From contig OZ242279.1 in NCBI GenBank assembly GCA_965207265.1, forward strand, positions 4,049,691 to 4,113,690: a stretch of DNA of 64,000 nt, given 5' to 3'. Numbering within the stretch: the first letter of the stretch is position 1; the number at the start of each line of letters is the position of its first letter. The stretch is from Vicinamibacterales bacterium (GTDB lineage Bacteria > Acidobacteriota > Vicinamibacteria > Vicinamibacterales > UBA8438). Positions 14,416 to 52,048 of the stretch are shown in pieces. The notes beneath the pieces are model-generated. The model was not told where the DNA came from, searched no databases, and saw nothing but the letters and a program-made list of their open reading frames with translations. A program made the position numbers and the translations under genes.

Positions 14416-14426
14416 CGCGTCGGGCG

Positions 14427-14999: not shown

Positions 15000-15020
15000 C
15001 GACGGTTCCCGCCTGGAATT

Positions 15021-15115
15021 CTAGCCCGACAATCGTCGCCTGCGGCTCCGATTGCCGCCCAACCGGGCCTGTCCAGGAGCCTGCACCGCTTCCACGGCGC
15101 AGACTCCCGGACTAG
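15021..15115 (+). repeat. R1 intergenic element, copy A (CTAG-core-hairpin variant-CTAG)
   Basis: It fills the whole CYTH/midA-like spacer. Its terminal CTAG (15112-15115) contains the TAG stop of the midA-like gene. Confidence 0.85.
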
Positions 15116-16275
15116 CGTGTCGCGCGGACACGATAGGAGCAACCCGCCAGAGACGGCGTCCCGACGTTCTTGCCGAAGAGCATCACCTTGTGGGTGCTGC
15201 CGAGTCCGCCGGGTACCAGCAGGGACTTCAGAGCCAGACGGCGCCGGAGAGCGGCGATGCCGTCGTCGCCCGATTCGCGCGATTCGTCATTCATCCGCTC
15301 GACCGCCCCGAGCCCCAGCAGAAAGTAGGTCTGGTCGAGCACGCCGAGCGTGCGCGCGCCGGCGTCCTCGGCCGCGTCGCGCACGAGTGTCAGGTCGACG
15401 TGCGCGGTGATGTCGCACTCTCCCGGGTCGACGAGCCACGGCGGCGGGGAGCCGTCGCCGGCGGCTGCGCTGCGCTGCCGCCGGTAGGTCGTCAGCGTGC
15501 CCGCGGCGTGCGTCGCCGAGTAGAGCTCCTGCGCCTCGTGGCCGTAGTCGACGAGCAGCAGGAATCCCCGGGTGAGGGCTTCGACGGCCCGGCGCACCCA
15601 GTCGGCGGCGGCCGGCGCGACCTCGGCTCGCCATCCCGACTCCAGCGTGATGTGCCGGTCGCGAACGTGCTGCAGGCTCGCTTGCGAGAGCGGGCCGAGG
15701 TGCTCGGCGAAGTCGCCGGTCGCGTGGTCGAGGTCGACGTATGCCTCCCGGAGTCCGCCGTCGGTCATTTCGAGCACATGCGGAGGGAGCGCGTCGAGCA
15801 GCTCGTTCGCGAAGATGGCTCCCCGGATCGCGGGTGGGATGCGGGAGCCCGACGATGCGACCTTGTCCGCGTGGGGGCCGAGCGTGGCGGCCTGCGCGTC
15901 GCGCGCGGCCCGGCTCCGTTCGACCAGGTGCAGCCGGATGGCCTGATAGAAAGCCTGGTCGTCGGCAGCGGCGGCGTCGAGCACGTCCCGTGCGAGCCGC
16001 CCGTTGCCGGCGGCGGCCTCGACCAGGTCGAACCGCGAGTCGCCGGATCCGGATCGCAGGATGCGCCACATCTCGGCGAGCTGCGATGCCAGCAGGGAGC
16101 CGAACGCGGGACCGAGGTCGACGCTGGTGAAGAAATCGCCCGCGCGACCGGAACGCCGGTCGGCGCGGGCGTAGTAACCCAACTCGGGATGGTAGAGGGC
16201 CAACTCCGCGTAGGCGGCGAACGGCAGCGGACCCTCCGTCTGGATCCGCTCCCGTATCACCTCCCGCAACGTCAT
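15112..16275 (-). CDS. class I SAM-dependent methyltransferase, MidA/NDUFAF7 (DUF185) family
   Basis: 387 aa, …PLPFAAYAELALYHPELGYYA…GDFFTSVDLGPAFG…LVEAAAGNGRLARDVL…. Confidence 0.8.
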   Translation of the reverse strand: MTLREVIRERIQTEGPLPFAAYAELALYHPELGYYARADRRSGRAGDFFTSVDLGPAFGSLLASQLAEMWRILRSGSGDSRFDLVEAAAGNGRLARDVLDAAAADDQAFYQAIRLHLVERSRAARDAQAATLGPHADKVASSGSRIPPAIRGAIFANELLDALPPHVLEMTDGGLREAYVDLDHATGDFAEHLGPLSQASLQHVRDRHITLESGWRAEVAPAAADWVRRAVEALTRGFLLLVDYGHEAQELYSATHAAGTLTTYRRQRSAAAGDGSPPPWLVDPGECDITAHVDLTLVRDAAEDAGARTLGVLDQTYFLLGLGAVERMNDESRESGDDGIAALRRRLALKSLLVPGGLGSTHKVMLFGKNVGTPSLAGCSYRVRATR

Positions 16276-16291
16276 CTCGTGCGTCCGGCCC

Positions 16292-16397
16292 CGCCGGCGC
16301 AGACTCCTGGGAGTCTGCGCCGTACAAGGGTGCGGATCTCCCAGTCAGGCCCGGCAGGGCGGCAATCGGAGCCCGCAGGCGACGATTGTCGGGCTAG
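16292..16397 (-). repeat. R1 intergenic element, copy B (inverted orientation)
   Basis: Reverse complement of the R1 core (CTAG at 16394-16397) plus the variant hairpin GGCGCAGACTCC-TGG-GAGTCTGCGCC at 16296-16322. Confidence 0.85.
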
Positions 16398-16455
16398 CGC
16401 CCCGAAACGCCTCGCAGGCTCGGCGTTCCGGCCCATCCCCCCGCTCCATGACCTT

Positions 16456-16502
16456 GCGCCGCAGCTCTTCGCTTCGCTGCGTTCTGCGGCGCAAGCTCCT
16501 AG
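16456..16502 (+). repeat. R1-related hairpin variant ending in CTAG at the htrA stop
   Basis: GCGCCGCAG-19 nt-CTGCGGCGC followed by AAGCTCCTAG. The CTAG at 16499-16502 contains the TAG stop of the HtrA gene. Confidence 0.6.
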
Positions 16503-18061
16503 TCCTTCTCCACCTGCAGAAAAACGCGTGTATCGCGGCGCTGCACCAGGAGGAACGCGGTCCGCCCCGACTCGATCTCGCCGAGCTCGGCGGTCGCCTC
16601 GCTGGCCGACGCGACGTCGACGCGGTTGACGCTGAGGATGACGTCCCCAGGCTGCAGGCCGCCTGCCTCTGCGGTGCTGCCGCGCTGGACGTCGACGACC
16701 ACCGCGCCGACCGTGTCCGCCGGCACGCGCAGGCGGCGGGCCATCGGCGGCGTCAGGTCCTGCAGCGTGATTCCGAACCCCTCGCTGGTCTCTTCGGCCG
16801 CGGCCATCACGTTGCGGCTCTGCGCCTCGAGGTCGAGCTCGCCGATGGTGATGTCGAGAGTCAACGGTTCACCGTTGCGAACGACGTCGATCGGCACGGT
16901 CGTGCCGGGCCGGGTGGCGACGACCCGACTCTGGAGATCCCGGGTGTCCTCCACGGGCTCCCCGCCGTAGGCCACCACCACGTCCGCGGGCTGCATGCCG
17001 CCTTGATCCGCGGGGCCGTCCGGGTTGACCAGTGAGACGATGACGCCGCGGGGTTCGTCGAGCCCGAGCACGGCGTACTCGTCCCTTGGGACGTCGCGAA
17101 TCTGAATGCCGATCACGCCGCGCGTCACCTTGCCGCCGCGGAGCTCGTCGAGCAGATTGCGTACGGTGTTGATGGGCACGGCGAAACCGACACCCGCGTT
17201 GGACCGGCGGTCGCTCATGATCGCCGTGTTCATGCCGACCACCTCGCCGCGGATGTTCAGGAGCGGCCCACCGGAGTTGCCCGGGTTGATTGCGGCATCG
17301 GTCTGCAGCATCTCGTTGCTGCGGCCGGTCGCCACCGGCAAGGGCCGGGCGAGCGCCGAGATGACCCCGACGGTGACCGTATGGCTGAGGCCGAAGGGGG
17401 CGCCGATCGCCATCACCCAGTCGCCCGGCGCCATCTGACTCGAGTCGCCGAACGTCGCCACGGGCAACTCCCGGTCGGGTCGCTCGACCAGCTCGAGCAG
17501 CGCGCTGTCGGTCAGGCGATCGCGGCCCAGCACGCGCGCTTCGTAGCGCTCGTCGTCGTCGTCGCCGAAGAAGTGAATCTCGATGCTCGTGGCGTTCTCG
17601 ATGACGTGGTTGTTCGTCAGAATCAAACCGTCGCCATCGATCACGAATCCCGTTCCGGTCGCCGCCGGCCGGGTGTTGTCGTTGTCGTCGGGCGGCGCCT
17701 CGCGTTCCGGCGGTTGCCCGAAGAACCGGCGGAAGAACTCGTCGCCGCCGAAGAACTCGTTCATGTTCCCCTGCTGCCGCGGCTGCTGGGTCCAGATCGT
17801 CACGACCATCGCCGTCTGCGCGTCGGCGATCTCGCGGAACGTCGTCGCGGTCAGATTGCCGGAGATCGGCGAGCTGTTCGGAATCGGCGCCCGAACGGAC
17901 TGCGCCGCCGACGGCGGAGCCAGATTGAAGCGTGACGCAATCACCATCCCGACCGCCATGGCGGTCACGGCAATCAACAGCGTGGAAACGAATGTGGTCC
18001 TCGATCTCGACATCATTTCCTCCAGCAGGGCGAGCACCCGCATCTCTCGCATCGACTCCAA
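16499..18061 (-). CDS. htrA: DegP/HtrA-family periplasmic serine protease with two PDZ domains
   Basis: The catalytic triad context is present (LTNNHVIENA, …DSALLEL…, GNSGGPLLNIRGEVVGMNTAI), with an N-terminal membrane anchor. Confidence 0.9.
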   Translation of the reverse strand: MESMREMRVLALLEEMMSRSRTTFVSTLLIAVTAMAVGMVIASRFNLAPPSAAQSVRAPIPNSSPISGNLTATTFREIADAQTAMVVTIWTQQPRQQGNMNEFFGGDEFFRRFFGQPPEREAPPDDNDNTRPAATGTGFVIDGDGLILTNNHVIENATSIEIHFFGDDDDERYEARVLGRDRLTDSALLELVERPDRELPVATFGDSSQMAPGDWVMAIGAPFGLSHTVTVGVISALARPLPVATGRSNEMLQTDAAINPGNSGGPLLNIRGEVVGMNTAIMSDRRSNAGVGFAVPINTVRNLLDELRGGKVTRGVIGIQIRDVPRDEYAVLGLDEPRGVIVSLVNPDGPADQGGMQPADVVVAYGGEPVEDTRDLQSRVVATRPGTTVPIDVVRNGEPLTLDITIGELDLEAQSRNVMAAAEETSEGFGITLQDLTPPMARRLRVPADTVGAVVVDVQRGSTAEAGGLQPGDVILSVNRVDVASASEATAELGEIESGRTAFLLVQRRDTRVFLQVEKD

Positions 18062-18120
18062 GTGTAACGCGGCTGCAGCCTGGCGCGGGCTTCCCGCCGA
18101 CGGGCGCGGGGCCGACCAGC

Positions 18121-18239
18121 AGTCTGCGCCGTTCTACGGCGGCAGACTCCTAGCCCGACAATCGTCGCCTGCGGCTCCGCTTGCCGCCCAACCGGGCCTG
18201 ACTAGGAGTCTACGCCGTTCTACGGCGGCAGACTCCTAG
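18121..18239 (+). repeat. R1 intergenic element, copy C (hairpin-CTAG-core-CTAG-hairpin-CTAG)
   Basis: The hairpin module is present on both sides of the core. The terminal CTAG (18236-18239) contains the TAG stop of the M24 peptidase gene. Confidence 0.9.
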
Positions 18240-19414
18240 CCCAGCGGGACGATTTCCGCCTGCCGCGGACCGGTCACGGCGGCGGCGGCGTCGTCCACGT
18301 ACACGTTGATCTCGGTCCGAACGCCGAAGTCATCCAGGTAGACGCCGGGTTCGATCGTGAACCCGGTGCCGGGAATGAGCCTCCGCTCATCGTGCGTCTC
18401 GTAGTCGTCCATGTGCACGCCGTTGCCGTGGACCTCCTCGCCGAGGCTGTGGCCGGTGCGGTGCATGAAGCGGTCGCCGTAGCCGGCGGCGTCGATCACG
18501 TCCCGCGCGGCGCGGTCCACCTCCCAGCCGCTGATCGGTCGACCGGCGTTCACCCGCTCGGTGACGAGGGAGACGGCGGCGTCGCGCGCCTCGCGTGCTG
18601 CGCCGAAGATGGCGGCGGCCCGGGGCGGCACCCGGGAGCCGGTGAAGCCGACCCACGTGATGTCGGCGTACACGGCGCCCGGCCGGTCGATCTTGCCCCA
18701 CAGGTCGAGCAGGACCACCTGTCCGCGTCCGATGGGACGATGTTCCTCCGCGGTGGGCAGATAGTGGGGGTTTCCGCTGCTCTCCTGAGCGGCCACCACG
18801 GGCGGGCAGTCGGTGACCAGCCCCGCGTCCGCGAACCACCCGGTCATCACCTGCTGGACCGCATACTCGGTCAACGAACCCCCGCCGACGCGGTCGGCGA
18901 TCAGCTCGAACGTGCGGTCCTTGATGCTGTGCAGATGCCGGGATGCAGTGCGATGGCTCGCGAGCGCCGCGTCGTCCCAGACGGCTTCGAAGCGTTGCAC
19001 GAGGTCGCCGGAGGACACCACCTCGGCGCCCAGCGAACGGATGCACTCGACGGTCCCGGCGTCCACCCGTGAGACGTAGGGAATCGCGCAGTTCGGCGAG
19101 TACTCCATCGCGATTCGGCGCATGCCCTGCACCAGGGAGTCCAGACCCGCTTCCAGCTCGTTGCGTCCCGCGTAGATCCGTCGGCTTCCGGGAAGATGCG
19201 CCAGACTGTGCCGCTCGATGCCGTGCACGAGGGCGCGCGGCTCGCCGGACGCGGGGACGAGGTAGTACCAGCGTCGCGTCGTCAGCTTGCCGCTACCGCC
19301 AAGTCCCGCTACCCGGCGCGCGATGGGGTTGGATCCGTGAAAGTCGTAGAGGAGCCAGCCGTCGAGTCCGTCCTCGCGGAGCGCCCGCTGAATCGCCGAC
19401 AGGTCGAATGCCAT
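18236..19414 (-). CDS. M24-family metallopeptidase (Xaa-Pro aminopeptidase-like)
   Basis: The C-terminal pita-bread fold motifs are present: HRTGHSLGEEVHG…GFTIEPGVY. Confidence 0.85.
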   Translation of the reverse strand: MAFDLSAIQRALREDGLDGWLLYDFHGSNPIARRVAGLGGSGKLTTRRWYYLVPASGEPRALVHGIERHSLAHLPGSRRIYAGRNELEAGLDSLVQGMRRIAMEYSPNCAIPYVSRVDAGTVECIRSLGAEVVSSGDLVQRFEAVWDDAALASHRTASRHLHSIKDRTFELIADRVGGGSLTEYAVQQVMTGWFADAGLVTDCPPVVAAQESSGNPHYLPTAEEHRPIGRGQVVLLDLWGKIDRPGAVYADITWVGFTGSRVPPRAAAIFGAAREARDAAVSLVTERVNAGRPISGWEVDRAARDVIDAAGYGDRFMHRTGHSLGEEVHGNGVHMDDYETHDERRLIPGTGFTIEPGVYLDDFGVRTEINVYVDDAAAAVTGPRQAEIVPLG

Positions 19415-19691
19415 GCGTGCGTACCGTACCGCGACGGCAATCGGGCCGCGACGCGCGACCCGGGATCTACCAGTAGGACGCCGGAATTCGCACCTTGGCT
19501 TGCTGCAAGGCCCCGGATCCGGTCAGGCCGGGGTGAGACGTCCGTCTGGCGACCGGAAAAGGACATAGACGGTGGCCCAGAGCACTTGCCGGCCGGGGTA
19601 AGCCGAAGCCCGGCCGGCACCGCGGATGCACGGGCGCGGCGACGACAGGCTCGGCGCGCGTTCCCGTCTCTGCGCGGCAAGGGGCCGCCGC

Positions 19692-20414
19692 TCAGGCGCC
19701 CTCTGCGGCTCCCGCCGCCCCATCCTCGGCCGCCGCGGACTCCTCCTGCATGCCCTCGACGGGGCGGAGGCAGGTGAACTTCAGCGCGTCCGCGTCCACC
19801 AGCTCTTCCTCGCCCTCTTCCGCTTCCTCGGCCGCGGCGGCTTCTTCGCCCTCTTCGCCCTCTTCGACCTCGGGTTGCGGCGGGAACTCGATGTCTTCCA
19901 GGAGGGTCGCCTTGACGTCGCCGTTCTGGTGAGAGAACTCGTAGTTGCTGCGGTCCATCGCGGACACCACCGGCACCCGGAGCTCGATGTCGCACACCTC
20001 GTCGACCAGGATCGGCAGGCGGCGCCGCGCCTGATCGCCGGTCACCGTGTTGCCGTCCCCGTCGTACCAGAACTCGTCGACCTGGAACCCCGCGATCGCG
20101 TTCTGCGAGACGTTCCGGATCCGGATCGACGTGATGTTGAAGCCGCGGTCCTGACCCGTGCCGCGGCGGGCCGTCGGCTGCGTGTAGCCGATCTCGGCCT
20201 GCCCGCGCTGCGTCGGCACGAGGGAGATTCCCGCCGCGAGCCGATCCGCGAGCCGATCCGCCGCGGCCCTGGCCTCGGGGCTTACTTCGACCTCCGCCTC
20301 TGCCGCCGCCGCGGCGGCCGCCGCCGCCTCCTCCTCTTCCCCGCCGCCGCAGGCGGTCGCCGCCGCCAGCAGGACCATGACACCCCAAAGCAGTGCGCGG
20401 TTCACGGATTGCAT
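19692..20414 (-). CDS. hypothetical lipoprotein with acidic low-complexity segments
   Basis: Signal peptide plus lipobox (LLAAATAC), followed by poly-E/A tracts. No family was recognised. Confidence 0.55.
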   Translation of the reverse strand: MQSVNRALLWGVMVLLAAATACGGGEEEEAAAAAAAAAEAEVEVSPEARAAADRLADRLAAGISLVPTQRGQAEIGYTQPTARRGTGQDRGFNITSIRIRNVSQNAIAGFQVDEFWYDGDGNTVTGDQARRRLPILVDEVCDIELRVPVVSAMDRSNYEFSHQNGDVKATLLEDIEFPPQPEVEEGEEGEEAAAAEEAEEGEEELVDADALKFTCLRPVEGMQEESAAAEDGAAGAAEGA

Positions 20415-20487
20415 CGCATGTCCTCCCGAAGATCGTTCGCAGAGATGAGGCGAAAGTATAGCAGTCCCGCGTCGAACGCGGGCATCC

Positions 20488-20946
20488 CTACATTTCTCCG
20501 TTCCAGTCCTCGGGCTCGGCGCTCGCCGACCGGAACACTTCCAGATGCCACTTGCCGCCGCCCCACGGTTCGATCACCTCGGCGGCGACGACGTCGACCA
20601 ACAGCTCCGAGAACGCGCGTCCCTCCGGGTCGCCTTCCAGGTGATAGGCCGGCTCGTCCCAGGAGAAGGTTGGGTAGAGGATCAGGCTGAGGAAGAGGTC
20701 GTAGCCGTCGTCGACCACGATAAGCTGGCCGCAGGGTCTCTTCTGGGTCGAGTGATACACGAGGTACTTTTCCGCGCTGTGCGCCCGGATGTACCGCTTG
20801 AGCGCGAACTCCTGGGCGACGACGTCCTCGACCGCCATCTTCTTAACCCAGCACTCGTGACAGTACTTCTCCTCCCCGCGGGGTTCGGAAACCTCCTTGG
20901 CGCCGCACAGGGCGCAGGGAGTGCGCGCAGCCGAACGTGGAGCCAT
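20488..20946 (-). CDS. hypothetical protein with N-terminal CxxC…CxxC zinc-ribbon-like motif
   Basis: 152 aa with protein-like composition (CALCG…CHEC). No family was recognised. Confidence 0.5.
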   Translation of the reverse strand: MAPRSAARTPCALCGAKEVSEPRGEEKYCHECWVKKMAVEDVVAQEFALKRYIRAHSAEKYLVYHSTQKRPCGQLIVVDDGYDLFLSLILYPTFSWDEPAYHLEGDPEGRAFSELLVDVVAAEVIEPWGGGKWHLEVFRSASAEPEDWNGEM

Positions 20947-21005
20947 GCGGTCGATTCTAGCAGGCTGGCAGGCCCGGCGCGGGCTTCGCGGATTACCATG
21001 GATCC

Positions 21006-21413
21006 ATGCCGGCTCGACCGCCGCACCGCGGCCTGCGACATCTGGCGCTGCACGTTCGCGCCTTCGACGCGATGAAGCGCTTCTATACGCAGGTTCTCGG
21101 CTTTGCGGTGGAATGGGAGCCGGACGCCGACAACGTCTATCTGACGTCCGGTGCCGACAACCTGGCGCTCCATCGCGGGCCGTCCGACGGCGATCCGGCG
21201 GAGCGGGCGGTCGGCGGCGCCCTCGATCATCTCGGTCTCGTGGTGCGCAGCGCGTCCGACGTCGACGCCTGGGCGGACTATCTGGCCGCCCAGGGCATCG
21301 CGCTCGACGCTCCCCCCCGGACCCATCGCGATGGTGCGCGGTCGCTGTACGTCTCCGATCCGGACGGGAACCGGGTGCAGATCATTCACCACCCGCCGAT
21401 AAGCGGCGAATAG
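21006..21413 (+). CDS. VOC-family (glyoxalase/bleomycin-resistance/dioxygenase fold) protein
   Basis: LRHLALHVRAFDAMKRFYTQVLGF…LDHLGLVV…LYVSDPDGNRVQI. Confidence 0.8.
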   Translation: MPARPPHRGLRHLALHVRAFDAMKRFYTQVLGFAVEWEPDADNVYLTSGADNLALHRGPSDGDPAERAVGGALDHLGLVVRSASDVDAWADYLAAQGIALDAPPRTHRDGARSLYVSDPDGNRVQIIHHPPISGE

Positions 21414-21466
21414 TCGCGCCTCGGAACCCCGTTCGCTGCGTTCTGCGGCACAAGGCTCCTGGACGC

Positions 21467-21508
21467 GGCGAGCGGGCGGAAGCGGCTCGCCGGCGCCGTC
21501 GGCGAGCC
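21467..21508. terminator. three-arm GC palindrome between convergent VOC gene and nadK (candidate bidirectional terminator)
   Basis: CGGCGAGC (21467-74), GCTCGCCG (21486-93) and CGGCGAGCC (21500-08) can form alternative 8-9 bp stems. Confidence 0.5.
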
Positions 21509-21512
21509 CGCG

Positions 21513-22418
21513 TCAGCGTTCGCCCCATTTCAGCTTTTCCCGCAGCACCGCGAAATAGTCGCGCGACTCGGCGCGCACCAGTCGCAAGGGGGGGGAAGAC
21601 CGCTCCACAATGACCGCGTCCCCGTCCTCGAGGGCCACGCTGAGCTGGCCGTCGAAGTTGGCGAAGGCGTCGAAGTGCGCTCCGGACAGACGCGGTTGCA
21701 GCGTCACCGGTTCCCGGCCCGGGATGACCACCGGCCGGTTGGTGAGCGTATGGGGAGCGATGGGGGTCACCGTGAGGGCATCGACGGTCGGGTGCACGAT
21801 CGGGCCGCCGGCGGCCAGGTTGTAGCCCGTGGATCCGGTCGGCGTCGCCACGATCACGCCGTCGGCGCGGCAACTCGTGACGAGCCGGTCGCGCAGGGTG
21901 ATCGACACGTCGATGATGCCCGAATCGGCCGATCTGCCGAGGACGACGTCGTTCAGCACGGTCCTGTCGGCGATGTCCCGCCCGTTGCGCCGGACCCGGG
22001 CCCGCACCGTGAGCCGCTCGTCCACGCCGGCCGTTCCGGCGAGCACGGAGTCGAGTGCGTCGTACATCTCGGGGCGGGTGATCTCGGTGAGGAAGCCGAG
22101 ACTCCCGCAGTTGACGGCGAGGATCAACGTGTCCGGGGCCAGGCTGGCAACCGGGTGGGCGACGCTCAGCAGGGTCCCGTCGCCGCCGAGCACGAGCAGC
22201 ACGTCCGCGGCCCCCGGCAAATCCGCCCGCGACGCGGTCGGGTGACCGTGCAGGGCGGCGCTGCGCGCGGTCTCGCTCTCGATCACCACCGGCGTGCCGC
22301 GGCCGAGCAGCCAGGCCGTGGCGCCCCGCGCGGCGGCGGTTGCATTGGGGGCGTGCGGCCGCGCCACGATGCCGACCGTGGTGCGGGATCCGCGGTTGCC
22401 GGTGGGCGGGTGCGCCAT
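21513..22418 (-). CDS. nadK: NAD(+) kinase
   Basis: …LVLGGDGTLL…, NCGSLGFLTE and PTGSTGYNLAAGGPIV motifs. The start was moved to Met32 of the listed ORF, giving a TGATG overlap with the tlyA stop. Confidence 0.9.
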   Translation of the reverse strand: MAHPPTGNRGSRTTVGIVARPHAPNATAAARGATAWLLGRGTPVVIESETARSAALHGHPTASRADLPGAADVLLVLGGDGTLLSVAHPVASLAPDTLILAVNCGSLGFLTEITRPEMYDALDSVLAGTAGVDERLTVRARVRRNGRDIADRTVLNDVVLGRSADSGIIDVSITLRDRLVTSCRADGVIVATPTGSTGYNLAAGGPIVHPTVDALTVTPIAPHTLTNRPVVIPGREPVTLQPRLSGAHFDAFANFDGQLSVALEDGDAVIVERSSPPLRLVRAESRDYFAVLREKLKWGER

Positions 22419-23179: not shown

Positions 23180-23198
23180 CGGGGCTCTCCGCGGGTGC

Positions 23199-24140: not shown

Positions 24141-24426
24141 CGTCGCTCGGCCCATTGTCCGCGCCAGGTTCTCCCGCGCCGCGGTCCGCAATGGGAGCGC
24201 CCGCGATCGACGCCGGCGCGGGGTGGGTGTCTCCCTGTTCCGTGAGCAGCTCGATCCGGCGTTCGGCGTCGTCGAGGCGCGTGTGGCAGAAGCGCGACAA
24301 CGCGATGCCCCGCTCGAAACGCTCGAGCGAGTGCTCCAGCGGAAGCTGCCCTTCCTCGAGCGTCTTGACGATGGTCTCGAGCTCGGCGAGCGCGGATTCG
24401 AAGTCCTTGATGTTCGGGTCGTCCAT
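24124..24426 (-). CDS. xseB: exodeoxyribonuclease VII small subunit
   Basis: FESALAELETIVKTLEEGQLPLEHSLERFERGIAL… is the canonical XseB sequence. Confidence 0.9.
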   Translation of the reverse strand: MDDPNIKDFESALAELETIVKTLEEGQLPLEHSLERFERGIALSRFCHTRLDDAERRIELLTEQGDTHPAPASIAGAPIADRGAGEPGADNGPSDDDVPF

Positions 24427-24463
24427 TGTCTCGCGCTCCTTCGCCGTGCCGGCGCGACCTTGC

Positions 24464-24513
24464 GGTCGCGTTGGGAGTTCGCCGGTGCGAAGCGCCTGCG
24501 GCGCAGACTCCTA
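24464..24513 (+). repeat. degenerate R1-type hairpin at the xseA 3' end
   Basis: …GGAGTTCGCCG…CGGCGCAGACTCCTAT. The CTA at 24511-13 is the TAG stop of xseA. The left part matches 442-466. Confidence 0.55.
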
Positions 24514-25956
24514 TTCCCGAGAGGTGACCTCGCAGCGCAACGCGCCCTCGTGCAGCGTGATGCGCACCGGATCGCCGACCGCGACCTCCGCCGCGCGGCG
24601 CACGATGGCCGTCCGATCCTCGTTCCAGCACACTGCGTACCCCCGCGCGAGGACACCGAGCGGGCTGAGCGAGTCGAGCTTCGCAAGGGTCGTCTCGAGT
24701 TCCCGCCGGCCGGTCGCGTGACGGTCGCGCACGGTGCGCGCCAGTTGCTCGCGGCCGGCCGCCAGCCGGCGGCGGCGAGCCGCGTGGCCGTCCCGGGCGG
24801 CGCGCGCCAGACGTTCGCGCGCGACGGCCAGACGAGTCCGGATGTGGGCCAGCCGGCGGCCGACGTCGAGCGCTTCGAGACGCGTGAGCAGCGCGGCCCG
24901 GCGGCGTTCGCGCCGTGCGACGCCGGCCCGCGCGCGCTCGACGAGCCGGCGGGTCAGCTCGTCCGCCCGGCGGCCGTGCAGTGCGAGCCGGGTCGGAAAC
25001 GAGGCCAGTCCCGGCCGGTGCCGCATTGCCTCCACGTTCGCCCGCCGCCGCTCGAGGGCGGTGCGCGCGGCCGCGACCAGACGCCCGCCGGCCCGTTCGA
25101 GGCGCGCCTCCAGCTCGGTCTTGCGGGTCACGACGAGCTCCGCCGCCGCGGACGGCGTCGGCGCGCGCAGGTCGGCGACGAAATCGCTGATCGTGTAGTC
25201 GGTCTGATGCCCCACCGCCGAGATCACCGGAACGCCGAGGGAGGCTATGGTCCTGGCCAGCCCTTCGTCGTTGAATTCCCAGAGGTCTTCCAGCGATCCG
25301 CCGCCGCGCGCCAGGATGACCACCTCGACGCCGCCGACGCGTGCGAGGCGCACGAGCGCGCCGGTGATCTCCCGGGCGGCCCCGTCGCCCTGCACGCGGG
25401 TCGGGCCGATGACGAGATGTGCGTTCGGGAAGCGGCGGCCGAGGACGTTCAGGACGTCGCGCAGCGCGGCCCCGTCCAGTGAGGTGACGATGCCGATCTT
25501 GCGCGGCAGCGTCGGCAGCGGGCGCTTGCGCGCTTCGTCGAACAGCCCTTCCCGTTCCAGGCGCTGGCGGAGCTGGTCGAAAGCCAACTGACGGGCGCCG
25601 AGGCCGAACGGCTCCAGGTGCTCCGCCACGAGCTGGTACTCGCCCTTCGGCTCGTACACGCTGATCCGCCCCCGTGCGACGACCCGCAGTCCGTCGGCCG
25701 GTTCGAATCGCAGATAGCGGAACGCCGACCGGAACATCACGCCGCGAATCTGCGCGGCGCCGCCCTTGAGGGTGAAGTAGAGGTGGCCGGTGTTCCAGCG
25801 GCGGCAGTTCGACAGCTCGCCCTCGACCCAGACTGCGGGGTAGGCCGACTCCAACCGCAACCGGATGCGGGCCGTCAGCTCCGCGACGGTGAGCACCTGG
25901 CGTCCCGGTCGTGTCCGCGGCGCGGGCGCCGCTTCGCCGAATGGCAGCCTCGTCAC
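24511..25956 (-). CDS. xseA: exodeoxyribonuclease VII large subunit
   Basis: The last 481 codons of listed ORF 24511..27180 match XseA: OB fold (VWVEGELSN…GHLYFTLKG), …ARGGGSLEDLW.FN…, and a long coiled-coil tail. The GTG at 25956 forms a GTGA overlap with the upstream gene. Confidence 0.9.
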   Translation of the reverse strand: MTRLPFGEAAPAPRTRPGRQVLTVAELTARIRLRLESAYPAVWVEGELSNCRRWNTGHLYFTLKGGAAQIRGVMFRSAFRYLRFEPADGLRVVARGRISVYEPKGEYQLVAEHLEPFGLGARQLAFDQLRQRLEREGLFDEARKRPLPTLPRKIGIVTSLDGAALRDVLNVLGRRFPNAHLVIGPTRVQGDGAAREITGALVRLARVGGVEVVILARGGGSLEDLWEFNDEGLARTIASLGVPVISAVGHQTDYTISDFVADLRAPTPSAAAELVVTRKTELEARLERAGGRLVAAARTALERRRANVEAMRHRPGLASFPTRLALHGRRADELTRRLVERARAGVARRERRRAALLTRLEALDVGRRLAHIRTRLAVARERLARAARDGHAARRRRLAAGREQLARTVRDRHATGRRELETTLAKLDSLSPLGVLARGYAVCWNEDRTAIVRRAAEVAVGDPVRITLHEGALRCEVTSRE

Positions 25957-26786
25957 GGTTCTGTCCGCCGGTCGAGCGCGTCTACGTCGTCCGCGGAAAG
26001 GTCCACGCGCTCGATCGTTCGCGCGCGGCCGGTCTCCGGGTCCGCGGTCACCACGATCGCGTTGATCCGCGGGTTGCGTGTCGCCGTGTCGAACTTCGCC
26101 GGCATGCCGTCCAGAAAGCGCTTCAGCACGGGCTGAGGGTCCACGCCGATGATCGAGTCGTGGGGACCGGTCATCCCGACGTCGGTGATGTATGCGGTGC
26201 CGTTGGGCAGGATGCGCTCGTCGGCGGTCTGCACGTGGGTGTGCGTGCCGGCCACCGCGGTCACCTCTCCGTCGAGGTGCCAGCCCATCGCCTTCTTTTC
26301 CGAGGTCGCCTCGGCGTGGAAATCCACGAACACGATGCGCGCCCCGTGTTCGGCCCGGACCGCGGCGACCTGCTCGCGAACCACGCGGAACGGATTGTCG
26401 AGCGGATTCATGAAGATGCGCCCCATCACGTTCACGATGCCGACCGGCACGCCGTCCCTTGTCCGCGCGCCGTAGTGCCCGCGGCCCGGCACGCCGGCGG
26501 GATAGTTGCCCGGCCGCAGGAGTCGCGGCTGGCTCTCGATGTACGCGAGCGCCTCCTTCTTGTCCCAGACGTGGTTGCCCGTCGTCATCACCTGGACACC
26601 GTGATCGAGCAGCGTCTCCCCGATGTCGCGGGTGATGCCGTTGCCGCCGGCCGCGTTCTCTACGTTGGCGATCACCAGGTCGACGCCGTGGCGGGCCACG
26701 AGCCGGGGGAGGGCCAGCCGGGTGATAGTGCGTCCCGGCTTGCCGACGATGTCGCCGACGAAAAGGAGCGTGACGGTTGCGGGCAT
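25953..26786 (-). CDS. YmdB-family metallophosphoesterase (TIGR00282-type)
   Basis: LLFVGDIVGKPGR…NVENAAGGNGIT…TTGNHVWD…DFHAEATSEK…GTHTHVQTADERIL. The ATG at 26786 was verified. Confidence 0.85.
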   Translation of the reverse strand: MPATVTLLFVGDIVGKPGRTITRLALPRLVARHGVDLVIANVENAAGGNGITRDIGETLLDHGVQVMTTGNHVWDKKEALAYIESQPRLLRPGNYPAGVPGRGHYGARTRDGVPVGIVNVMGRIFMNPLDNPFRVVREQVAAVRAEHGARIVFVDFHAEATSEKKAMGWHLDGEVTAVAGTHTHVQTADERILPNGTAYITDVGMTGPHDSIIGVDPQPVLKRFLDGMPAKFDTATRNPRINAIVVTADPETGRARTIERVDLSADDVDALDRRTEP

Positions 26787-26910
26787 CCGCTGGAATGATC
26801 GCACAGGTGGTTGCCGGCCTGCGAAGCGCCCGGCCGCGACGCGGCAGTCGAGACCGGCCGTGGCCCGGCGGATGTCGACCCGGCGCCGGATCTTCGCGTA
26901 TCCTAGTGGA

Positions 26911-27219
26911 ATGGACGACGAGACTGAGGTTTCCGAGGCTGCCACGGCGCCGGCGCAGGCTGCGGAAGACGGTGCCGAAGCCGCGCGCGAGCCGGCGCCG
27001 CCCATCGAAAGCCGTTTTCTGTATGTCGACGTGGCGGCGCAGCGCGCGAAGCAGTTGCGCCGCGGCGCTCTGCCGCGGCTCGAGGAGTTGGCCGGCGATG
27101 CGGAGGCGGACACTCCGGTGAAGCTGCGTCACAAGCTCGAGCGCATCGCCATGCGCGAAGTGGACCGCCGCAAGATTCATTACGACGTGCCGGACCCGGC
27201 GCCGGCGTCGGGGGAGTGA
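26911..27219 (+). CDS. rpoZ: DNA-directed RNA polymerase subunit omega
   Basis: 102 aa. ESRFLYVDVAAQRAKQLRRGA… matches the omega signature (NRF.LV..AakRArQL). The listed ORF start at 26623 lies antisense within the ymdB-like gene, so the start is taken at the ATG at 26911. Confidence 0.7.
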   Translation: MDDETEVSEAATAPAQAAEDGAEAAREPAPPIESRFLYVDVAAQRAKQLRRGALPRLEELAGDAEADTPVKLRHKLERIAMREVDRRKIHYDVPDPAPASGE

Positions 27220-27530
27220 TCGTGGCTCCAGATCAGTCGATCATCGGCGGGGCCGTGCAGACTCTTATGGGGCTGGCCGTCTCCACCGGATTTCTGCTCG
27301 CGCTGTTCATCGGGTTCCTGGTAATCGCGGGCTTCACCAAGTTCCGGAAGACCGGACGCGGATCGCTGGTGGTCCGCAATCTGGCGGATCAGATGGACGG
27401 TGCGCGGGTCCGGTACATCCCGCCGGATGCGCCCAGCGGGCCGGCGGACCAGTTGCGCACGCCCGAGCTCCTCGAACAGGCGGGCGGAACGGCCGCCGAC
27501 ACCGGAGCTTCTCAGGCCGGACCTTCCTGA
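27216..27530 (+). CDS. small hypothetical membrane protein
   Basis: One clear TM helix ([24 protein letters not shown]). The start overlaps the rpoZ stop. The 3' end overlaps convergent gatA by 19 nt. Weak call. Confidence 0.4.
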
Positions 27531-29014
27531 ACGCGTTCGTACGCGTGCGCCAGTCGCAGGAGCGTCGCTTCGCCGAAGGCGCGCCCGACCAGTTGCAGGC
27601 CGATCGGCAGGCGGGCCGCCGTGAAGCCGGCCGGCACGCTGATCGCCGGCAGGCCGGTCAGGTTGGCGCTGACGGTGAACACGTCTCCCAGGTACATCGC
27701 CAGCGGATCCTGCAGGTGCTCGCCGAGCCGGAACGCGGGTGCGGGCGTCGTCGGCATCGCGATGACGTCCACGCCGGGCCCGGCGGCGTCGAATGCGCGA
27801 TCGTAGTCGCGTCGAATCAGGCTTCGTACGCGCTGGGCCCGGCGGTAGTACGCGTCGTAGTAGCCGGCACTCAGCGCATAGGTCCCGAGCATGATCCGGC
27901 GCTTCACTTCCGCCCCGAAGCCGGCGTCGCGCGTCCGGTCGTACATCGCGGCGAGCGGTGAGCCTGCGCCGTCTCCGCCCTCGGCCGCCGCCGCGGCGCG
28001 GGCGCCATAGCGGACCCCGTCGTAGCGGGCGAGGTTGGAGCTGGCCTCCGCCGGGGCGACCAGATAGTAGACGGGCACCGCGTGCTCCGCGTGCGGCAGC
28101 TCGACGTCGACCACCGAGGCGCCTGCCGCCGCGAGCGCGACGAGGGCCTTGTCGAAGGCCGCCAGCACCTCGCTGTCGATGCCCGCGTCGCCGTACCCCA
28201 GCAGCGCGCGCGGTACGCCGACCCGCAGTCCTGCCGCGTCTCCGGGGAGCGCCGCCGTGTAGTCGTCGACGGGCGCGTCCACCGACGTCGCGTCGTGCGG
28301 ATCGTGCCCCGCCAGCACTCCCAGGACGAGCGCCGTGTCGGCCACCGTCCGCGCCAGGGGACCGATCTGGTCGAGCGATGAGGCGAAGGCCAGCAGTCCG
28401 TAGCGGGAGACGCGGCCGTAGGTCGGTTTCAGCCCGGCGATTCCGCAGAACGCCGCCGGCTGGCGGATGGAGCCGCCCGTATCCGATCCGATGGCGACCG
28501 GCGCGAGCCCGGCCGCCACCGCGGCGGCGGCGCCGCCGCTCGATCCGCCCGGCGTGCGTTCGGGGTCCCACGGGTTCCGGCTCGGTCCGTAGGCGGAGTG
28601 CTCGGTCGACGACCCCATCGCGAACTCGTCGCAGTTGGTCTTGCCGACGACGATCGCGCCCGCTTCCCGCAGGCGGGCGGCCACCGTGGCGTCGTACGGC
28701 GGTCGAAAGCCGGCCAGGATTCGCGACGCCGCGGTCGTCGGCTGTCCCCGCGTGCAGATGACGTCCTTGACGGTGATCGGCACGCCGAGCAAGGGCCGGT
28801 CGCGCCACTCGTTCCGGTGCCGATCTACCTCCGCGGCCCGCGCCAGCGCCTCGTCCCGGAACACCGCGGTGAACGCGTTCCAGCGCCCGTCGTCCTCCGC
28901 GATGCGTTCCAGGTAGTGCCTGCAGACCTCGACCGCCGACCGGTGGCCGGACCGTACGGCGTCGCGAATGGAGCTGGCGGTCTCCGCGTCCGCCGGCCGC
29001 GCCGCGCCCGCCAT
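27512..29014 (-). CDS. gatA: Asp-tRNA(Asn)/Glu-tRNA(Gln) amidotransferase subunit A
   Basis: Amidase signature …[14 protein letters not shown]…[16 protein letters not shown]…. Confidence 0.95.
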
Positions 29015-29328
29015 CAGCCCAGCACTCGCGGCACGCGGAAAAAGCCGCCCGTCTCCGAGGTGCGGTCCGCGACGCCGTCCGGCGCGTTGGCCAGCGTCTG
29101 GTCGCGGGCGAGCGACGGCCGCACGGAGTCCGGGCGCCGCGGGCAGTCGGCGCCGCCGGGGTGCCAGGACTCGTCGGCGCCGCTCACGTCGACCTCCTGC
29201 AGCCGTTCGGCGTACTCGAGGATGTCGGCGAGCTGCGGAGTGAACAGATCGACTTCTTCGGGGGTGAGATCCAGGTGCGCCAGCGCGGCGATCCGCTCGA
29301 CGTCGGCGCGGGTGAGACGGTCGGGCAT
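29014..29328 (-). CDS. gatC: Asp-tRNA(Asn)/Glu-tRNA(Gln) amidotransferase subunit C
   Basis: [47 protein letters not shown]. The ATG at 29328 was verified. Confidence 0.85.
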
Positions 29329-29446
29329 GGGCACGACCCTAACACAGCCTGCGAACGGCTCGGGCGCTCGGGCGTGGCGTCGGAGTCGGCGAAACATTCC
29401 GCACGGCGCCGGGGCGCGCCTGGCGCCGGCGTGCGATCATGGGCGG

Positions 29447-30334
29447 GTGTCAGGTTCGCTCTTCGGCCGGCCGCGCGCCGAGGTCGAGGCCGCCCTTCCG
29501 GATCGCGAGCCGGTCGCTTGCCCGCTGTGCGGTCGTGAGCCCCGGCCGTTCGCCGTCGACTTCCAGGGATTGCACCTCGCGCGCTGCACCGCCTGCGGTC
29601 TGGAGTTCCAGCACCCGCGACCCGTGTTCGAGCAGATCGCCTCCGCCGTCTATACGCCCGAGTACCATCCCGAAGGGCACGAAATCGTCGACGGCGGCCG
29701 GGAGCGGACCTTCGCGAGACAGTTGGAGCGGGTCGAGCGGTACGTCCACCGCCGCCCCGCCGCCCTGCTCGACGTCGGGTGCGGGGCCGGCGCGTTTCTG
29801 GGCTACGCCCGATCCCGCGGCTGGACCGTGGGCGGCACCGACATCAACGTCACGCAAGACGCGCGACGACACGATGCTCGACTGTGGGAGGGACAGTTGC
29901 CGGAGATCCGCTTCGACGGCGCGCGGTTCCACGCTGTTCGCCTCAACCAGGTGCTCGAGCACACCCCGGACCCGTTGCGGGAGCTGCGGCAGGCGCGGCG
30001 TCTGGTCGCCGGAGACGGCGTTCTGCTGATCGGCGTGCCGAACCTCGCCGGACTGAGCGTTCGCCTCAAGAGCTGGCAGAGCCGTCTCGGCCTGAAGCGC
30101 CGGCGTTGGAAGCACTACGGCGCACTGCACCATCTCTGGTTCTTCACCCCGGCGACGCTGGCGGCGCTGGTCGAGGCGGCCGGGTTCAGGGTGGTGCACT
30201 GGGAGACGCCGGCCGAGGATCGGCCGGGGCGGTCCGGATGGGCGAAGGCGCTGGTGCGGGGTCCGCTCCAGGCCGCGAGACTGGGCGGGATTCTCGATCT
30301 GTACGCACGGCCGGCAGAACCGACGCGGGACTGA
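29447..30334 (+). CDS. class I SAM-dependent methyltransferase with N-terminal Cys4 zinc ribbon
   Basis: CPLCG…CTACG is followed by LLDVGCGAGAFL (motif I) and …LNQVLEHTPDPLRELR…. The GTG at 29447 is in frame with listed ORF 28598..30334, whose upstream part runs antisense to gatA and gatC. Confidence 0.8.
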   Translation: MSGSLFGRPRAEVEAALPDREPVACPLCGREPRPFAVDFQGLHLARCTACGLEFQHPRPVFEQIASAVYTPEYHPEGHEIVDGGRERTFARQLERVERYVHRRPAALLDVGCGAGAFLGYARSRGWTVGGTDINVTQDARRHDARLWEGQLPEIRFDGARFHAVRLNQVLEHTPDPLRELRQARRLVAGDGVLLIGVPNLAGLSVRLKSWQSRLGLKRRRWKHYGALHHLWFFTPATLAALVEAAGFRVVHWETPAEDRPGRSGWAKALVRGPLQAARLGGILDLYARPAEPTRD

Positions 30335-30403
30335 ATCAGGACGTTCGGTCTGGCCGGCGGGCACCCTTCGCGCCAACCTCTGGACGTTCGATTCGGCGTG
30401 CCG

Positions 30404-31306
30404 TCAGTGCGAGCCGTAGTCGAGCTCTCCGGCCTCGACCCGCACCGGCAGCCGGTTCTCGCGCGGCGGCAGCGGGCACGTCGTGTGCGGATTGAAGGCG
30501 CACGGGGGGTTGTAGGCCCGGTTGAAGTCCACCGTCGTCCTGCCGTCGGCATCCGGGGCGTCGGCGTACAGGAAACGCGCGGCGGGGTAGGTCTCGCTGC
30601 CGCTCGTCAGGTCGCGGAAGATGAACCACAGTCGGTCGCCGGAATCGACCGCCGTCATGCGCAACTCCGCGCCGCCCACGGTGAGGGCGACCGAGCCGCT
30701 GGTCCGGAACGTCTCGACGTCGCCGAGGATGTTGGGCAGCCGCATCGTGCGCGGCTCGTCGTGCGGGATGTAGCGCCCGTGCACCCGGAAGGCCTCGTCG
30801 ACCGGGTACCAGCGCAGGCCGGTGAAGCTGCGCCGGACGTCGCTCTCCCGATCCCGCATGCGGATGGCGAGCCGGTCGCCGCTGTAGTGGCCGAACAGCG
30901 ACAGCGGACCGAGGGCGATGGTCGGCCGCTCGCGTCCCTCGTAGGGCCAGAGCTGCGCCGCTTCGACGTCCCGGCCATCGATCCAGAGCGTCTCTCCCCG
31001 CGGCGCCCGCACCGTGATCGTCCCGTCCCGCAGGGTGAACACGCCGGCCTCGGCGGGTCCGGTCCGCAGCAGGATGTCGTTGAGCGGCGACGACCCGAAG
31101 CTGTTGTCCCCCTCGTTGAGGAAGAACAGGCCGGCCACCGTCAGCCAGCCGTCGTCCGCCTTCAGGCGCTGTTCGCGGTCGACGCGCCAGGCCTCGATCT
31201 CCGCCGCGTAGTCCTGTGCGGCCGGCATCCCCGACGCCATCAGCACCGCGAGCGCGCAGAGCGCCGCTCGCCTCCACCGCAGGATTCCGTGTTGCACGGG
31301 CCACAT
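30404..31306 (-). CDS. DUF1684 domain protein (secreted)
   Basis: …DDGWLTVAGLFFL…VDFNRAYNPPCAFNPHTTCPLPPRENRL… is the DUF1684 hallmark. The start is taken at MWPVQ (31306), downstream of the R1 repeat. Confidence 0.8.
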   Translation of the reverse strand: MWPVQHGILRWRRAALCALAVLMASGMPAAQDYAAEIEAWRVDREQRLKADDGWLTVAGLFFLNEGDNSFGSSPLNDILLRTGPAEAGVFTLRDGTITVRAPRGETLWIDGRDVEAAQLWPYEGRERPTIALGPLSLFGHYSGDRLAIRMRDRESDVRRSFTGLRWYPVDEAFRVHGRYIPHDEPRTMRLPNILGDVETFRTSGSVALTVGGAELRMTAVDSGDRLWFIFRDLTSGSETYPAARFLYADAPDADGRTTVDFNRAYNPPCAFNPHTTCPLPPRENRLPVRVEAGELDYGSH

Positions 31307-31331
31307 CCTTTCACGCGCCGTCTCCGGCATC

Positions 31332-31420
31332 CTAGCCCGACAATCGTCGCCTCCGGCTCCGATTGCCGCCCAACCGGGCCTGACTAGGAGTCTACGCCGT
31401 TCTACGGCGCAGACTCCTAG
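31332..31420 (+). repeat. R1 intergenic element, copy D (CTAG-core-CTAG-hairpin-CTAG)
   Basis: This copy is closest to the consensus. It lies in the divergent spacer between the DUF1684 gene and acnA. Confidence 0.9.
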
Positions 31421-31594
31421 AACGCACACGCGCTATTATTTATGGTTCGTCTGGCGCGCGGGGGGCGCAGCGCCGTGCATCGTCCGGCGTCGTTCGTGAC
31501 GCCCGGCTTGCTGCGGCGCCGGCGACCCGTGCGCCGGCCTGGACGAGCCGACGCGTCTAGAGAGGGTACGGCAGCTACAGCAAGAGTCCCATCC

Positions 31595-39513: not shown

Positions 39514-39673
39514 CCGGCGGCGCCAGGAGGGTTGGTAGGGCGCCAGGCGGAGCCGTCAGGCGGCGATTGGCGGGGCGGTGGGGATGGGGCCGAACACGGA
39601 GCCCCGCGACGGGTTTGGCGGGGCTAGAATGATTCGTTCCCGTTTGGAGACAATGCCGCCGAGGAGGTGAATC

Positions 39674-51438: not shown

Positions 51439-51442
51439 CTAG

Positions 51443-51975: not shown

Positions 51976-52048
51976 ACGGCGAGGGCGAGGGTGGAGCGTG
52001 GGCAGCGCCAGGGGATCGACAGGATCCAAGCGCCAGGGGAAATGAAGC

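Follow-up and report, generated by a model that had tools for sequence, protein, structure and literature searches.

The window analysed here is a 64-kb stretch of contig OZ242279.1 from a Vicinamibacterales bacterium (69% G+C). On its minus strand lies a cluster of four genes, coding for an M24 peptidase, an HtrA/DegP protein, a MidA-like methyltransferase and a CYTH protein, whose three spacers are filled with short repeats belonging to a family named R1 and to a related element, R2 (Table 1). A first-pass annotation of the letters alone had reported four full copies of R1, referred to here as A to D; all four are present where it had placed them, far above chance, the 48-nt core matching with one mismatch each at 15025, 18154 and 31336 (0 expected in shuffles) and, in the alignment, with a 1-nt insertion in copy B. 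The same annotation rightly saw copy B as inverted with a variant hairpin and copy C as carrying the hairpin (H) on each side of the core; its inventory of the spacers was incomplete, as it had missed R2 and a decayed relic at 39522-39627.

The association of these repeats with gene ends is intimate. As first noticed, the terminal CTAG of copies A (15112, minus strand) and C (18236) contains the TAG stop codons of the MidA-like and M24 genes; the terminal CTAG of R2 (16499-16502) is likewise the stop codon of HtrA. R2 and copy B stand head-to-head with the CTAG at 16394 common to both, so that the whole 223-nt spacer between HtrA and MidA is made of repeats; the same three spacers of the cluster measure 11-42 nt in relatives where they are empty. 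The strand of copy A that folds better is the minus strand, which is also that of operon transcription. Copy D is flanked by two genes that point away from each other: on the minus strand DUF1684, with an in-frame ATG at 31330 or at 31306, and on the plus strand aconitase, whose ATG is at 31442. The relic occupies the spacer after a gene ending at 39513. The tetranucleotide CTAG occurs 20 times in the window against 70 expected from a second-order model (0.28 of expectation), and 9 of these 20 sites fall within the four R1 copies. The description of R1 as modules each bracketed by CTAG holds in full for copies C and D and fails for copy A, where the internal position reads TCCAG and the hairpin ends in CCGG+A, and for copy B, which has CTAG only on the core side (16394), the remaining positions being CTGG and CCAG.

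Table 1. Repeats, host genes and other mobile elements (window coordinates, unless a locus label precedes them)
Feature	Coordinates	Strand	R1 covariance model	Layout and remarks
R1 copy A	15021..15115	-	106 bits	On the + strand: CTAG 15021-15024; core 15025-15071; hairpin H 15072-15111, end CCGG+A; CTAG 15112-15115
R1 copy B, inverted	16292..16397	+ (consensus orientation on window minus strand)	84.9 bits	Core 16346-16393; core-side CTAG 16394-16397; variant hairpin ~16297-16345; extra partial 5' arm 16292-16310
R1 copy C, extra hairpin	18116..18239	-	107.6 bits	CCAG + H 18116-18149; CTAG 18150; core 18154-18201; CTAG 18202; H 18206-18235; CTAG 18236-18239
R1 copy D	31332..31420	-	114.5 bits	CTAG 31332; core 31336-31383; CTAG 31384; H 31388-31416; CTAG 31417
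R2, related 109-nt element	16394..16502	-	28.9 bits, E 5e-4	
Decayed relic	39522..39627	-	26.2 bits, E 0.002; match 39522-39580	Degenerate core (reverse complement), then degenerate R2-type core hairpin; end is CTAG 39624
Host gene cluster	14427..19414	-		CYTH, MidA-like, HtrA/DegP, M24; three spacers filled
CYTH gene	14427-14999	-		
MidA-like methyltransferase gene	15112-16275	-		Stop is the TAG of the terminal CTAG of copy A
HtrA/DegP gene	16499-18061	-		
M24 peptidase gene	18236-19414	-		Stop is the TAG of the terminal CTAG of copy C
R3, AT-richer ~105-nt element	L098:6200-6310; L017:680-790	-		Imperfect terminal inverted repeats TGCTGYGCCACG / CGTGACGGACSA
Truncated IS5/IS1182-type transposase open reading frame	51516-52274 (region 51439-52274)			252 aa, DUF772; starts ~75 nt after CTAG
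IS110-family transposase	L044:4682-5716	-		DEDD_Tnp_IS110 + Transposase_20; in repeat-rich spacer

Anatomy and folding of the repeat

The anatomy of R1 was drawn from about 95 copies, whose consensus reads (CYRG) CCCGACAATCG-TCGCCTGCGGCTC-CGATTGCCG CCCAACCGGGCCTGA (CYRG) GAGTCTGCGCCG-TTCTA-CGGCGCAGACTC (CYRG) CG. The unit is bounded by CTAG-like tetramers (CYRG) and its two ends are unlike: one bears a small hairpin, its stem covarying and its loop (TCGCCTGCGGCTC) conserved in sequence, the other a large G+C-rich hairpin with a nearly invariant 3' arm (CGGCGCAGACTCC) and a 5' arm that drifts. The CTAGs had been taken for module boundaries and the hairpin stem for one of about 13 bp; the internal and terminal tetramers in fact form the base of the large stem by pairing together. 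With them the stem measures 16-19 bp, and across about 80 copies the two tetramers are mostly CCAG and CTGG. In the 78 copies used for counting, the internal tetramer is CCAG in 38 and CTAG in 4; the terminal one is most often CTGG (29), CTAG (23) or CCGG (12), and the left one CTAG (22), CTGG (16), CCAG (13), CTCG (9) or GTAG (5). The terminal and internal tetramers covary (p≈0.001), and the former is inherited with the hairpin subfamily, CTAT...ATAG being an example; the left tetramer is correlated with neither, left and right being identical 14 times against 12.9 expected, and no copy with GTAG on the left has it on the right as well. As the left and right tetramers are uncorrelated, the 4-bp target duplication that the bracketing had suggested at first pass is not demonstrated. 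Nor does R1 have classical terminal inverted repeats, as had been said from the outset: beyond the tetramer, the left end, which reads (CTAG)CCCGACAATCG, has nothing in common with the right end taken in reverse complement, (CTAG)GAGTCTGCGCCG, and R2 is likewise without such repeats. An outer stem of the core, GCCCG/CGGGC, was rejected because it is not kept in variants. The variation of the internal and terminal tetramers among CTAG, CCAG, CTGG and CCGG takes place in a CCWGG context (CCAGGAG, CTCCTGG); rapid turnover between CTAG and CCAG/CTGG would, we presume, fit Dcm-type methylation followed by deamination and very-short-patch repair.

R2 follows the same plan. Its small, core-like hairpin has a perfect 10-bp stem (CCGAAACGCC/GGCGTTCCGG) and a loop (TCGCAGGCTC) related to that of R1, it reads CCCATCC where R1 has CCCAACC, and its long hairpin, longer than that of R1 and ending in ...GCGGCGCAAGCTC-CTAG, has the same 3' end, ...GCGGCGCAGACTC-CTAG. 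A small open reading frame (ORF) in R2 (MERGDGPKRRACEAFRGA) was rejected as a gene, being not conserved in the copies of loci L104 and L105. The modules also occur alone or recombined, as solo hairpins (L100, L104), a solo core (L064), the hairpin-core-hairpin arrangement of copy C, and fusions of R2 with R1 through a shared tetramer (L009, L021, L074, L078 and others).

That the hairpins are real was borne out by covariation. RNAalifold did not recover them from the plus-strand alignment, owing to A·C mismatches and gaps, and the two hairpins were therefore supplied by hand as the structure and tested on 94 sequences by counting pairs against shuffles and slid controls. Changes on both sides affect 17 of 25 pairs, compared with 8.2±1.6 in shuffles (0 of 500 reach 17) and 7-12 in slid controls; counted as cells, they number 70, compared with 28 and 12-34, respectively. 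Diverged copies keep the small stem by double changes, as in L082 and L049 (C-G to A-T) and in L016 and L089 (several pairs), and L087 has a perfect 9-bp small stem despite a 45-nt insertion in the loop. In the orientation of the first-pass annotation, the mismatches comprise 121 A·C cells against 39 G·T; as A·C in that orientation is G·U or G·T on the complement, it is the reverse-complement strand that folds. This agrees with the folding energies of copy D as RNA (-56.8 kcal/mol for the reverse-complement strand against -44.2) and of copy A as DNA (-31.3 kcal/mol, z = -5.8, for the minus strand against -22.1, z = -3.0, for the plus strand), and the hairpins are very stable overall (z = -6 to -7.6). 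Since the variants that carry mismatches form multi-copy subfamilies, the constraint would have acted on copies that were still proliferating.

Distribution and insertion sites

One genome per species was scanned for exact matches to a 22-nt anchor in the core, which gave at least 97 loci, nearly all of them from about 14 metagenome-assembled genomes (MAGs) labelled Vicinamibacterales or “Acidobacteria” (order Vicinamibacterales, Acidobacteriota). R1 is thus a dispersed family, as the first-pass comparison with REP/BIME- or MITE-like elements had supposed, and not a set of four local repeats. Single chromosomes hold at least 13-15 anchored copies (14 listed on OZ219745.1 and 15 on CAXXVU020000002.1, both lower bounds), and the R1 model found 13 more, more diverged and without the anchor, in about 750 kb of flanking DNA, or about one per 58 kb; extrapolated from that density, the copy number is estimated at about a hundred or more per 7-Mb genome. 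R2 modules gave 15-17 matches in 830 kb. The window belongs to the same clade: an identical MidA protein (100%) is encoded by a 7.59-Mb contig and by a 99-kb contig with the same spacers. Searched with the covariance models of Rfam 15, the window has no match at gathering thresholds, the region 14900-18400 none at E<=10, and loci L039, L044, L056 and L058 none, so that the Rfam check proposed at first pass brought up no known family. A plasmid origin was rejected, blastn against PLSDB giving nothing relevant, and so was a phage origin, scans of IMG/VR for the 22-mer and the hairpin arm giving 0 hits. R1 is one subfamily of an undescribed superfamily of the Vicinamibacterales, comprising R1, R2 and solo hairpins, 85-110 nt long, non-coding and presumably non-autonomous.

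Decayed and truncated copies are common. Among individual cases, L084:4000-4050 has a 15-nt 5' core fragment with CTGG directly upstream of a full copy, L093 compared with L081 has an internal deletion between short GCCG repeats, and L019/L029 have a truncated core without hairpin.

Outside the order, the 22-mer stem-loop GACAATCGTCGCCTGCGGCTCC is found unchanged in contigs assigned to other phyla, with different surroundings in each. A Spirochaetia MAG (L039; 49.8 bits) keeps the arrangement of two hairpins, its small stem being a perfect one of 10 bp and its large hairpin a different one; the 22-mer is also present in L044 and L056, both from Acidimicrobiales MAGs, and in a sequence at contig ends that is identical in two FW602 bins, assigned to Gammaproteobacteria and Chloroflexota (L010 and L058). 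This pattern could reflect horizontal spread of the family or of its enzyme, or mis-binning of MAGs. The L058-type flank of this 22-mer, sought in metagenomes, gave 0 hits.

Evidence for mobility comes from orthologous sites. The M24-HtrA-MidA-CYTH cluster is syntenic in eight relatives, with MidA identities of 78-90%. Orthologous empty sites with a single CTAG had been named beforehand as a test of mobility, and at the MidA stop they are seen in five of these relatives (L099, L100, L101, L103 and L106), which read ...ACACG CTAG AATC... with a spacer of 11-20 nt; the window reads CTAG, an 89-nt R1 in reverse complement, then CTAG AATTC. The same stop holds an R1 in the opposite orientation and a remnant of an older copy in L098, and other members of the family in L104 and L105. 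The same CTAG sites have thus been filled independently, by different members and in both orientations. At the HtrA stop, L104 reads CTAG followed directly by GAGTCT..., compared with CTAG, R2 (ending ...GGGGCG CTGG) and GAGTCT... in L105, a clean R2 insertion at the place where R2 also stands in the window; judged by this comparison, R2 is mobile in its own right. A conserved CTAG in the HtrA leader (TTACA CTAG G) holds an R1 in L104, and away from the cluster an exact R1 insertion of 85 nt (L005 versus L043, empty site GACG CTGG CGCGG) and one of 86 nt (L062 versus L065 and L003) were found. The boundaries between empty and filled sites fall exactly at CTAG, in a flank preference of roughly CG-CTAG-CG, which is near-palindromic. 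Mobility of the family and its targeting to CTAG are, on these comparisons, very probable.

Stop codons are frequent targets. With orthologous duplicates removed, 29 genes run into the left end, and 11 of them have their stop exactly within the left tetramer; of the 43 that run into the hairpin end, 15 have it exactly within the terminal tetramer, while a further 8 stop 15 nt deeper, at a TAG in the loop. The loop TTCTA, which is TAGAA on the other strand, places this TAG in frame with the terminal one (CTAG GAG TCT GCG CCG TAG; for instance at 18206-18239, minus strand), so that an ORF whose terminal TAG has decayed to TGG or CGG gains five codons and ends at the loop. The genes of these loci end in TGA (281), TAG (214) or TAA (17), and TAG stops are preceded by C in only 61 cases against 128 by G; the preference for C-TAG is therefore real. 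The first-pass view that the element donates stop codons has to be reversed: the stops mostly pre-exist, the empty sites of relatives already end in C-TAG, and the element therefore preserves or regenerates a stop.

Nor did a terminator role, also proposed at first pass, find support. A scan of 14300-19600 placed no terminator-like site at any of the elements; beyond the hairpin comes CTAGCCC... on one strand and UCAGGCCC... on the other, without a T/U run, and three consecutive copies lie inside an operon that is compact in relatives, which together leave the role unsupported. A hairpin of 16-19 bp that starts at the stop codon may all the same affect translation termination or the 3' stability of the mRNA.

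Candidate mechanisms of spread

The reading that we favour, with modest confidence, is that of a non-autonomous, CTAG-targeting mobile repeat superfamily without terminal inverted repeats (TIRs), comparable to the repetitive extragenic palindromes (REPs) and bacterial interspersed mosaic elements (BIMEs) and moved by a putative HUH-type enzyme. A unit would insert at CTAG and then have a CTAG-like tetramer on both sides; as the genome is CTAG-poor, the target would very often be the C+TAG of a gene end, and with the tetramer on both sides the stop codon would be kept in either orientation of the element. Acting in trans, a putative HUH/Y1 enzyme would recognise the folded reverse-complement strand, as in systems of REPs and REP-associated tyrosine transposases (RAYTs) or of the IS200/IS605 type. 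IS608 TnpA recognises subterminal hairpins and cleaves at tetranucleotides (PMC3201880), and REPs, in which a GT(A/G)G head is followed by a palindrome, are thought to be moved by RAYTs (PMC2817692, PMC6006769). A folded single strand as the likely substrate is a hallmark of HUH/Y1 enzymes and is the reason for favouring this type of mobilisation; mobilisation in trans by such a single-strand DNA enzyme is itself advanced only tentatively.

Several observations weigh against an HUH-type mechanism. Searching 0.88 Mb by tblastn revealed no Y1/RAYT gene (IS200, IS608 or RAYT), the queries being consensus sequences and the test a weak one, and the sequence scanned contained no longer element with the same two ends. 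No transposase was found between distant inverted hairpin arms; the pairs of arms in L015 and L016 are separate small elements. The two hairpins of R1 are unlike each other, whereas the ends of IS608-type elements are alike. The orientation of copies bears no relation to local GC skew (mean -0.001±0.004; 41 of 92 positive), and the two complete chromosomes show no block pattern by replichore, orientations alternating along OZ219745.1 and CAXXVU020000002.1; this lack of replication bias argues against a strict lagging-strand mode of the IS200/IS605 type. Finally, a DDE transposase making staggered cuts would be expected to leave just such traces, a CTAG on either side and a palindromic preference at the target, and the same genomes contain R3, a TIR-bearing element with a 4-bp CTAG/CTAC duplication.

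These last points lead to the strongest alternative, in which R1 would be a miniature inverted-repeat transposable element (MITE) moved by a DDE transposase, either of the IS5 group with a 4-bp CTAG duplication or of the IS630 type at the TA of CTAG, the flanking CTAGs being a true duplication. Precedents exist, as MITEPsy1 duplicates CTAG on insertion (PMC3189936) and IS630 targets the TA in CTAG (Tenzen and Ohtsubo 1991, cited in PMC2170065). CTAG-like tetramers on both sides of the element and single ones at empty sites, the roughly palindromic CG-CTAG-CG preference, and insertion in both orientations without replication bias all agree with it, and so does the presence of R3, whose TIR is TGCTGYGCCACG and whose duplication is CTAG in L098 and CTAC in L017; R3, which sits within R1 copies, either at their internal CTAG or in a hairpin arm, is a classical IS5-type MITE resident in the same genomes. 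In the window, the IS5/IS1182-type transposase remnant with a DUF772 domain does abut a CTAG, as noticed at first pass at 51443, but the resemblance of its end to the R1 core was detected neither by nhmmer nor by the covariance model, and the fragment was rejected as a relative of R1. R1 and R2 also lack terminal inverted repeats, whether CTAG or TA is taken for the duplication; the left and terminal tetramers match no more often than expected, and the terminal tetramer goes with the hairpin subfamily and not with the left end. We accordingly regard a DDE-moved MITE as somewhat unlikely.

Two further transposases were rejected as partners. The IS110-family enzyme of L044, some 165 nt away from the 22-mer, is bounded by direct repeats of its own, GAACGGCTCCCRGAGGGGA at ~4387 and 5906, and the insertion sequence of L050 (L050:1-1340, minus strand) is IS4/IS1634-like and inserted into an R1 hairpin loop right after TTTCCTA. 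The assignment of its transposase ORF was made by eye, from ...YDLTNTYFEG...KRGHSKEKR...

A more radical idea is that the family represents an undescribed transposition system, without inverted repeats, with two different folded hairpins on one DNA strand, and aimed at CTAG/TAG stops; we consider this distinctly improbable. If true, insertions would be nearly harmless and could saturate gene ends, the 22-nt stem-loop GACAATCGTCGCCTGCGGCTCC would be what an enzyme that has been transferred widely, or else a conserved host factor, recognises, and the internal and terminal tetramers, by their pairing, would act as a built-in guide to where cleavage takes place. Guide-directed targeting in another form, with the left tetramer complementary to the internal one, was rejected, at 12 matches against 9.7 expected.

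It is highly unlikely that the repeats are host-selected functional elements, such as terminators, mRNA 3' stabilisers or sites for a protein or for ribosome stalling, that have spread through selection for such a role. Of the copies next to the 3' end of a gene, about half begin exactly at the stop codon; the hairpins are very stable, and among 80 copies the co-directional arrangement in which the better-folding strand is transcribed (<E<, 36) exceeds its opposite (>E>, 17) by 2:1; REPs within 15 nt of the stop codon are moreover reported to stall ribosomes (PMC12306157). Yet the hairpins lack the T/U tract of a classical intrinsic terminator, a third of the co-directional copies are oppositely oriented, 15 of the 80 copies lie between divergent genes (12 lie between convergent ones), three sit in a compact operon whose spacers measure 11-42 nt in relatives, the same sites are empty in close relatives, and copies are commonly decayed or truncated. 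Cassette shuffling at any CTAG and in either orientation, by a CTAG-specific endonuclease together with ligation or by a site-specific recombinase whose crossover core is CTAG, would suit separable modules joined at CTAG-like tetramers (solo hairpins, a solo core, H-core-H, R2-R1 fusions, R3 inside R1), both orientations and ends that need no inverted repeats, but it is extremely unlikely, given that units are intact although their internal junction is mostly CCAG and not CTAG, that conserved hairpins, covariation and strand asymmetry are left without explanation, and that no such enzyme was identified.

Relation to known repeats and significance

The closest likeness of the REP-like, CTAG-targeting superfamily that we favour is with the REPs and BIMEs of E. 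coli, Pseudomonas and Stenotrophomonas, which are also short, extragenic, imperfectly palindromic and of high copy number, with compensatory changes in the stem; like REPs, R1 often stands just 3' of genes, and like BIMEs it combines its units in mosaics. The REP head GT(A/G)G and the R1 tetramer CT(A/G)G, analogous though not identical, both vary between A and G at the third position, and the reverse-complement strand of R1 reads CTAGGAGTC... compared with GTAGGAGC... in REPs of Xanthomonas and Pseudomonas (PMC2817692); on the folding strand, the large hairpin begins CT(A/G)G-GAGTCTGCGCCG..., akin to such REP heads. Unlike that of REPs, the head tetramer of R1, CT(A/G)G or CC(A/G)G, is paired within the stem; R1 also differs in having a second, unrelated hairpin, the core, with a loop conserved in sequence, in inserting at CTAG and stop codons with clean empty sites, and in the negative, if weak, RAYT search described above. 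Its hosts are Acidobacteriota, whereas RAYT-REP systems have been described mainly in Proteobacteria.

With IS200/IS605 elements and their non-autonomous derivatives, the palindrome-associated transposable elements (PATEs), R1 has in common the absence of inverted repeats, unlike ends each with a subterminal hairpin, a junction tetranucleotide and one strand that folds better (PMC3201880, PMC6006769). It departs from them in that its hairpins are dissimilar, its tetramers pair within the stem and not with a guide 5' of the hairpin foot, its orientation is not tied to replication, and the sequence scanned contained no TnpA partner. The CTAG MITEs of the IS5 group (MITEPsy1, PMC3189936) and IS630 (via PMC2170065) resemble R1 in being about 100 nt long, non-coding, inserted at CTAG and flanked by CTAG on both sides. 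R1 and R2 have the MITE traits of small size, lack of coding capacity, multiple copies and insertion polymorphism, but they lack the terminal inverted repeats that define a MITE, and no true duplication can be demonstrated in them.

Other modular repeats offer looser parallels. The BOX elements of pneumococci are highly structured, modular (boxA-B-C) intergenic repeats and in this respect like R1; the mycobacterial interspersed repetitive units (MIRUs) lie in the intercistronic spacers of operons, overlap the flanking stop and start codons and carry small in-frame ORFs. No mobilising enzyme is known for BOX, and neither BOX nor MIRU is known to target CTAG. Neither is known to be related in sequence to R1 or R2, and unlike the MIRU ORFs the small ORF of R2 is not conserved. 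The 3' ends of IS91/ISCR elements and Helitrons have a subterminal G+C-rich hairpin, then some 6-10 nt and a terminal tetranucleotide of the CTRR type, and these elements insert at GTTC/CTTG or between A and T. The R1 hairpin followed by AGACTC and CTAG/CTGG, with unlike ends and no inverted repeats, recalls this arrangement; the targets are different, no partner was found for R1, and the resemblance may be coincidental.

The window also contains two other repeats, each probably within coding sequence: a 108-nt unit present three times in tandem at 58554-58877, with 73-80% identity to the reference copy, and a repeat with a 24-nt period, of which at least four copies overlap at 8148-8267.

The Vicinamibacterales are abundant soil bacteria and almost unstudied genetically. 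The family affects the annotation of gene ends and the places where MAG assemblies break, and it could serve as a strain marker. REP-like mobilisation is still poorly understood, and the combination of a precise tetranucleotide and stop-codon target, no inverted repeats and two unlike, covarying hairpins makes this superfamily a good test case for it, one that clean empty and filled sites render experimentally approachable. A hairpin set at the stop codon may, moreover, modulate termination or mRNA decay across many operons.

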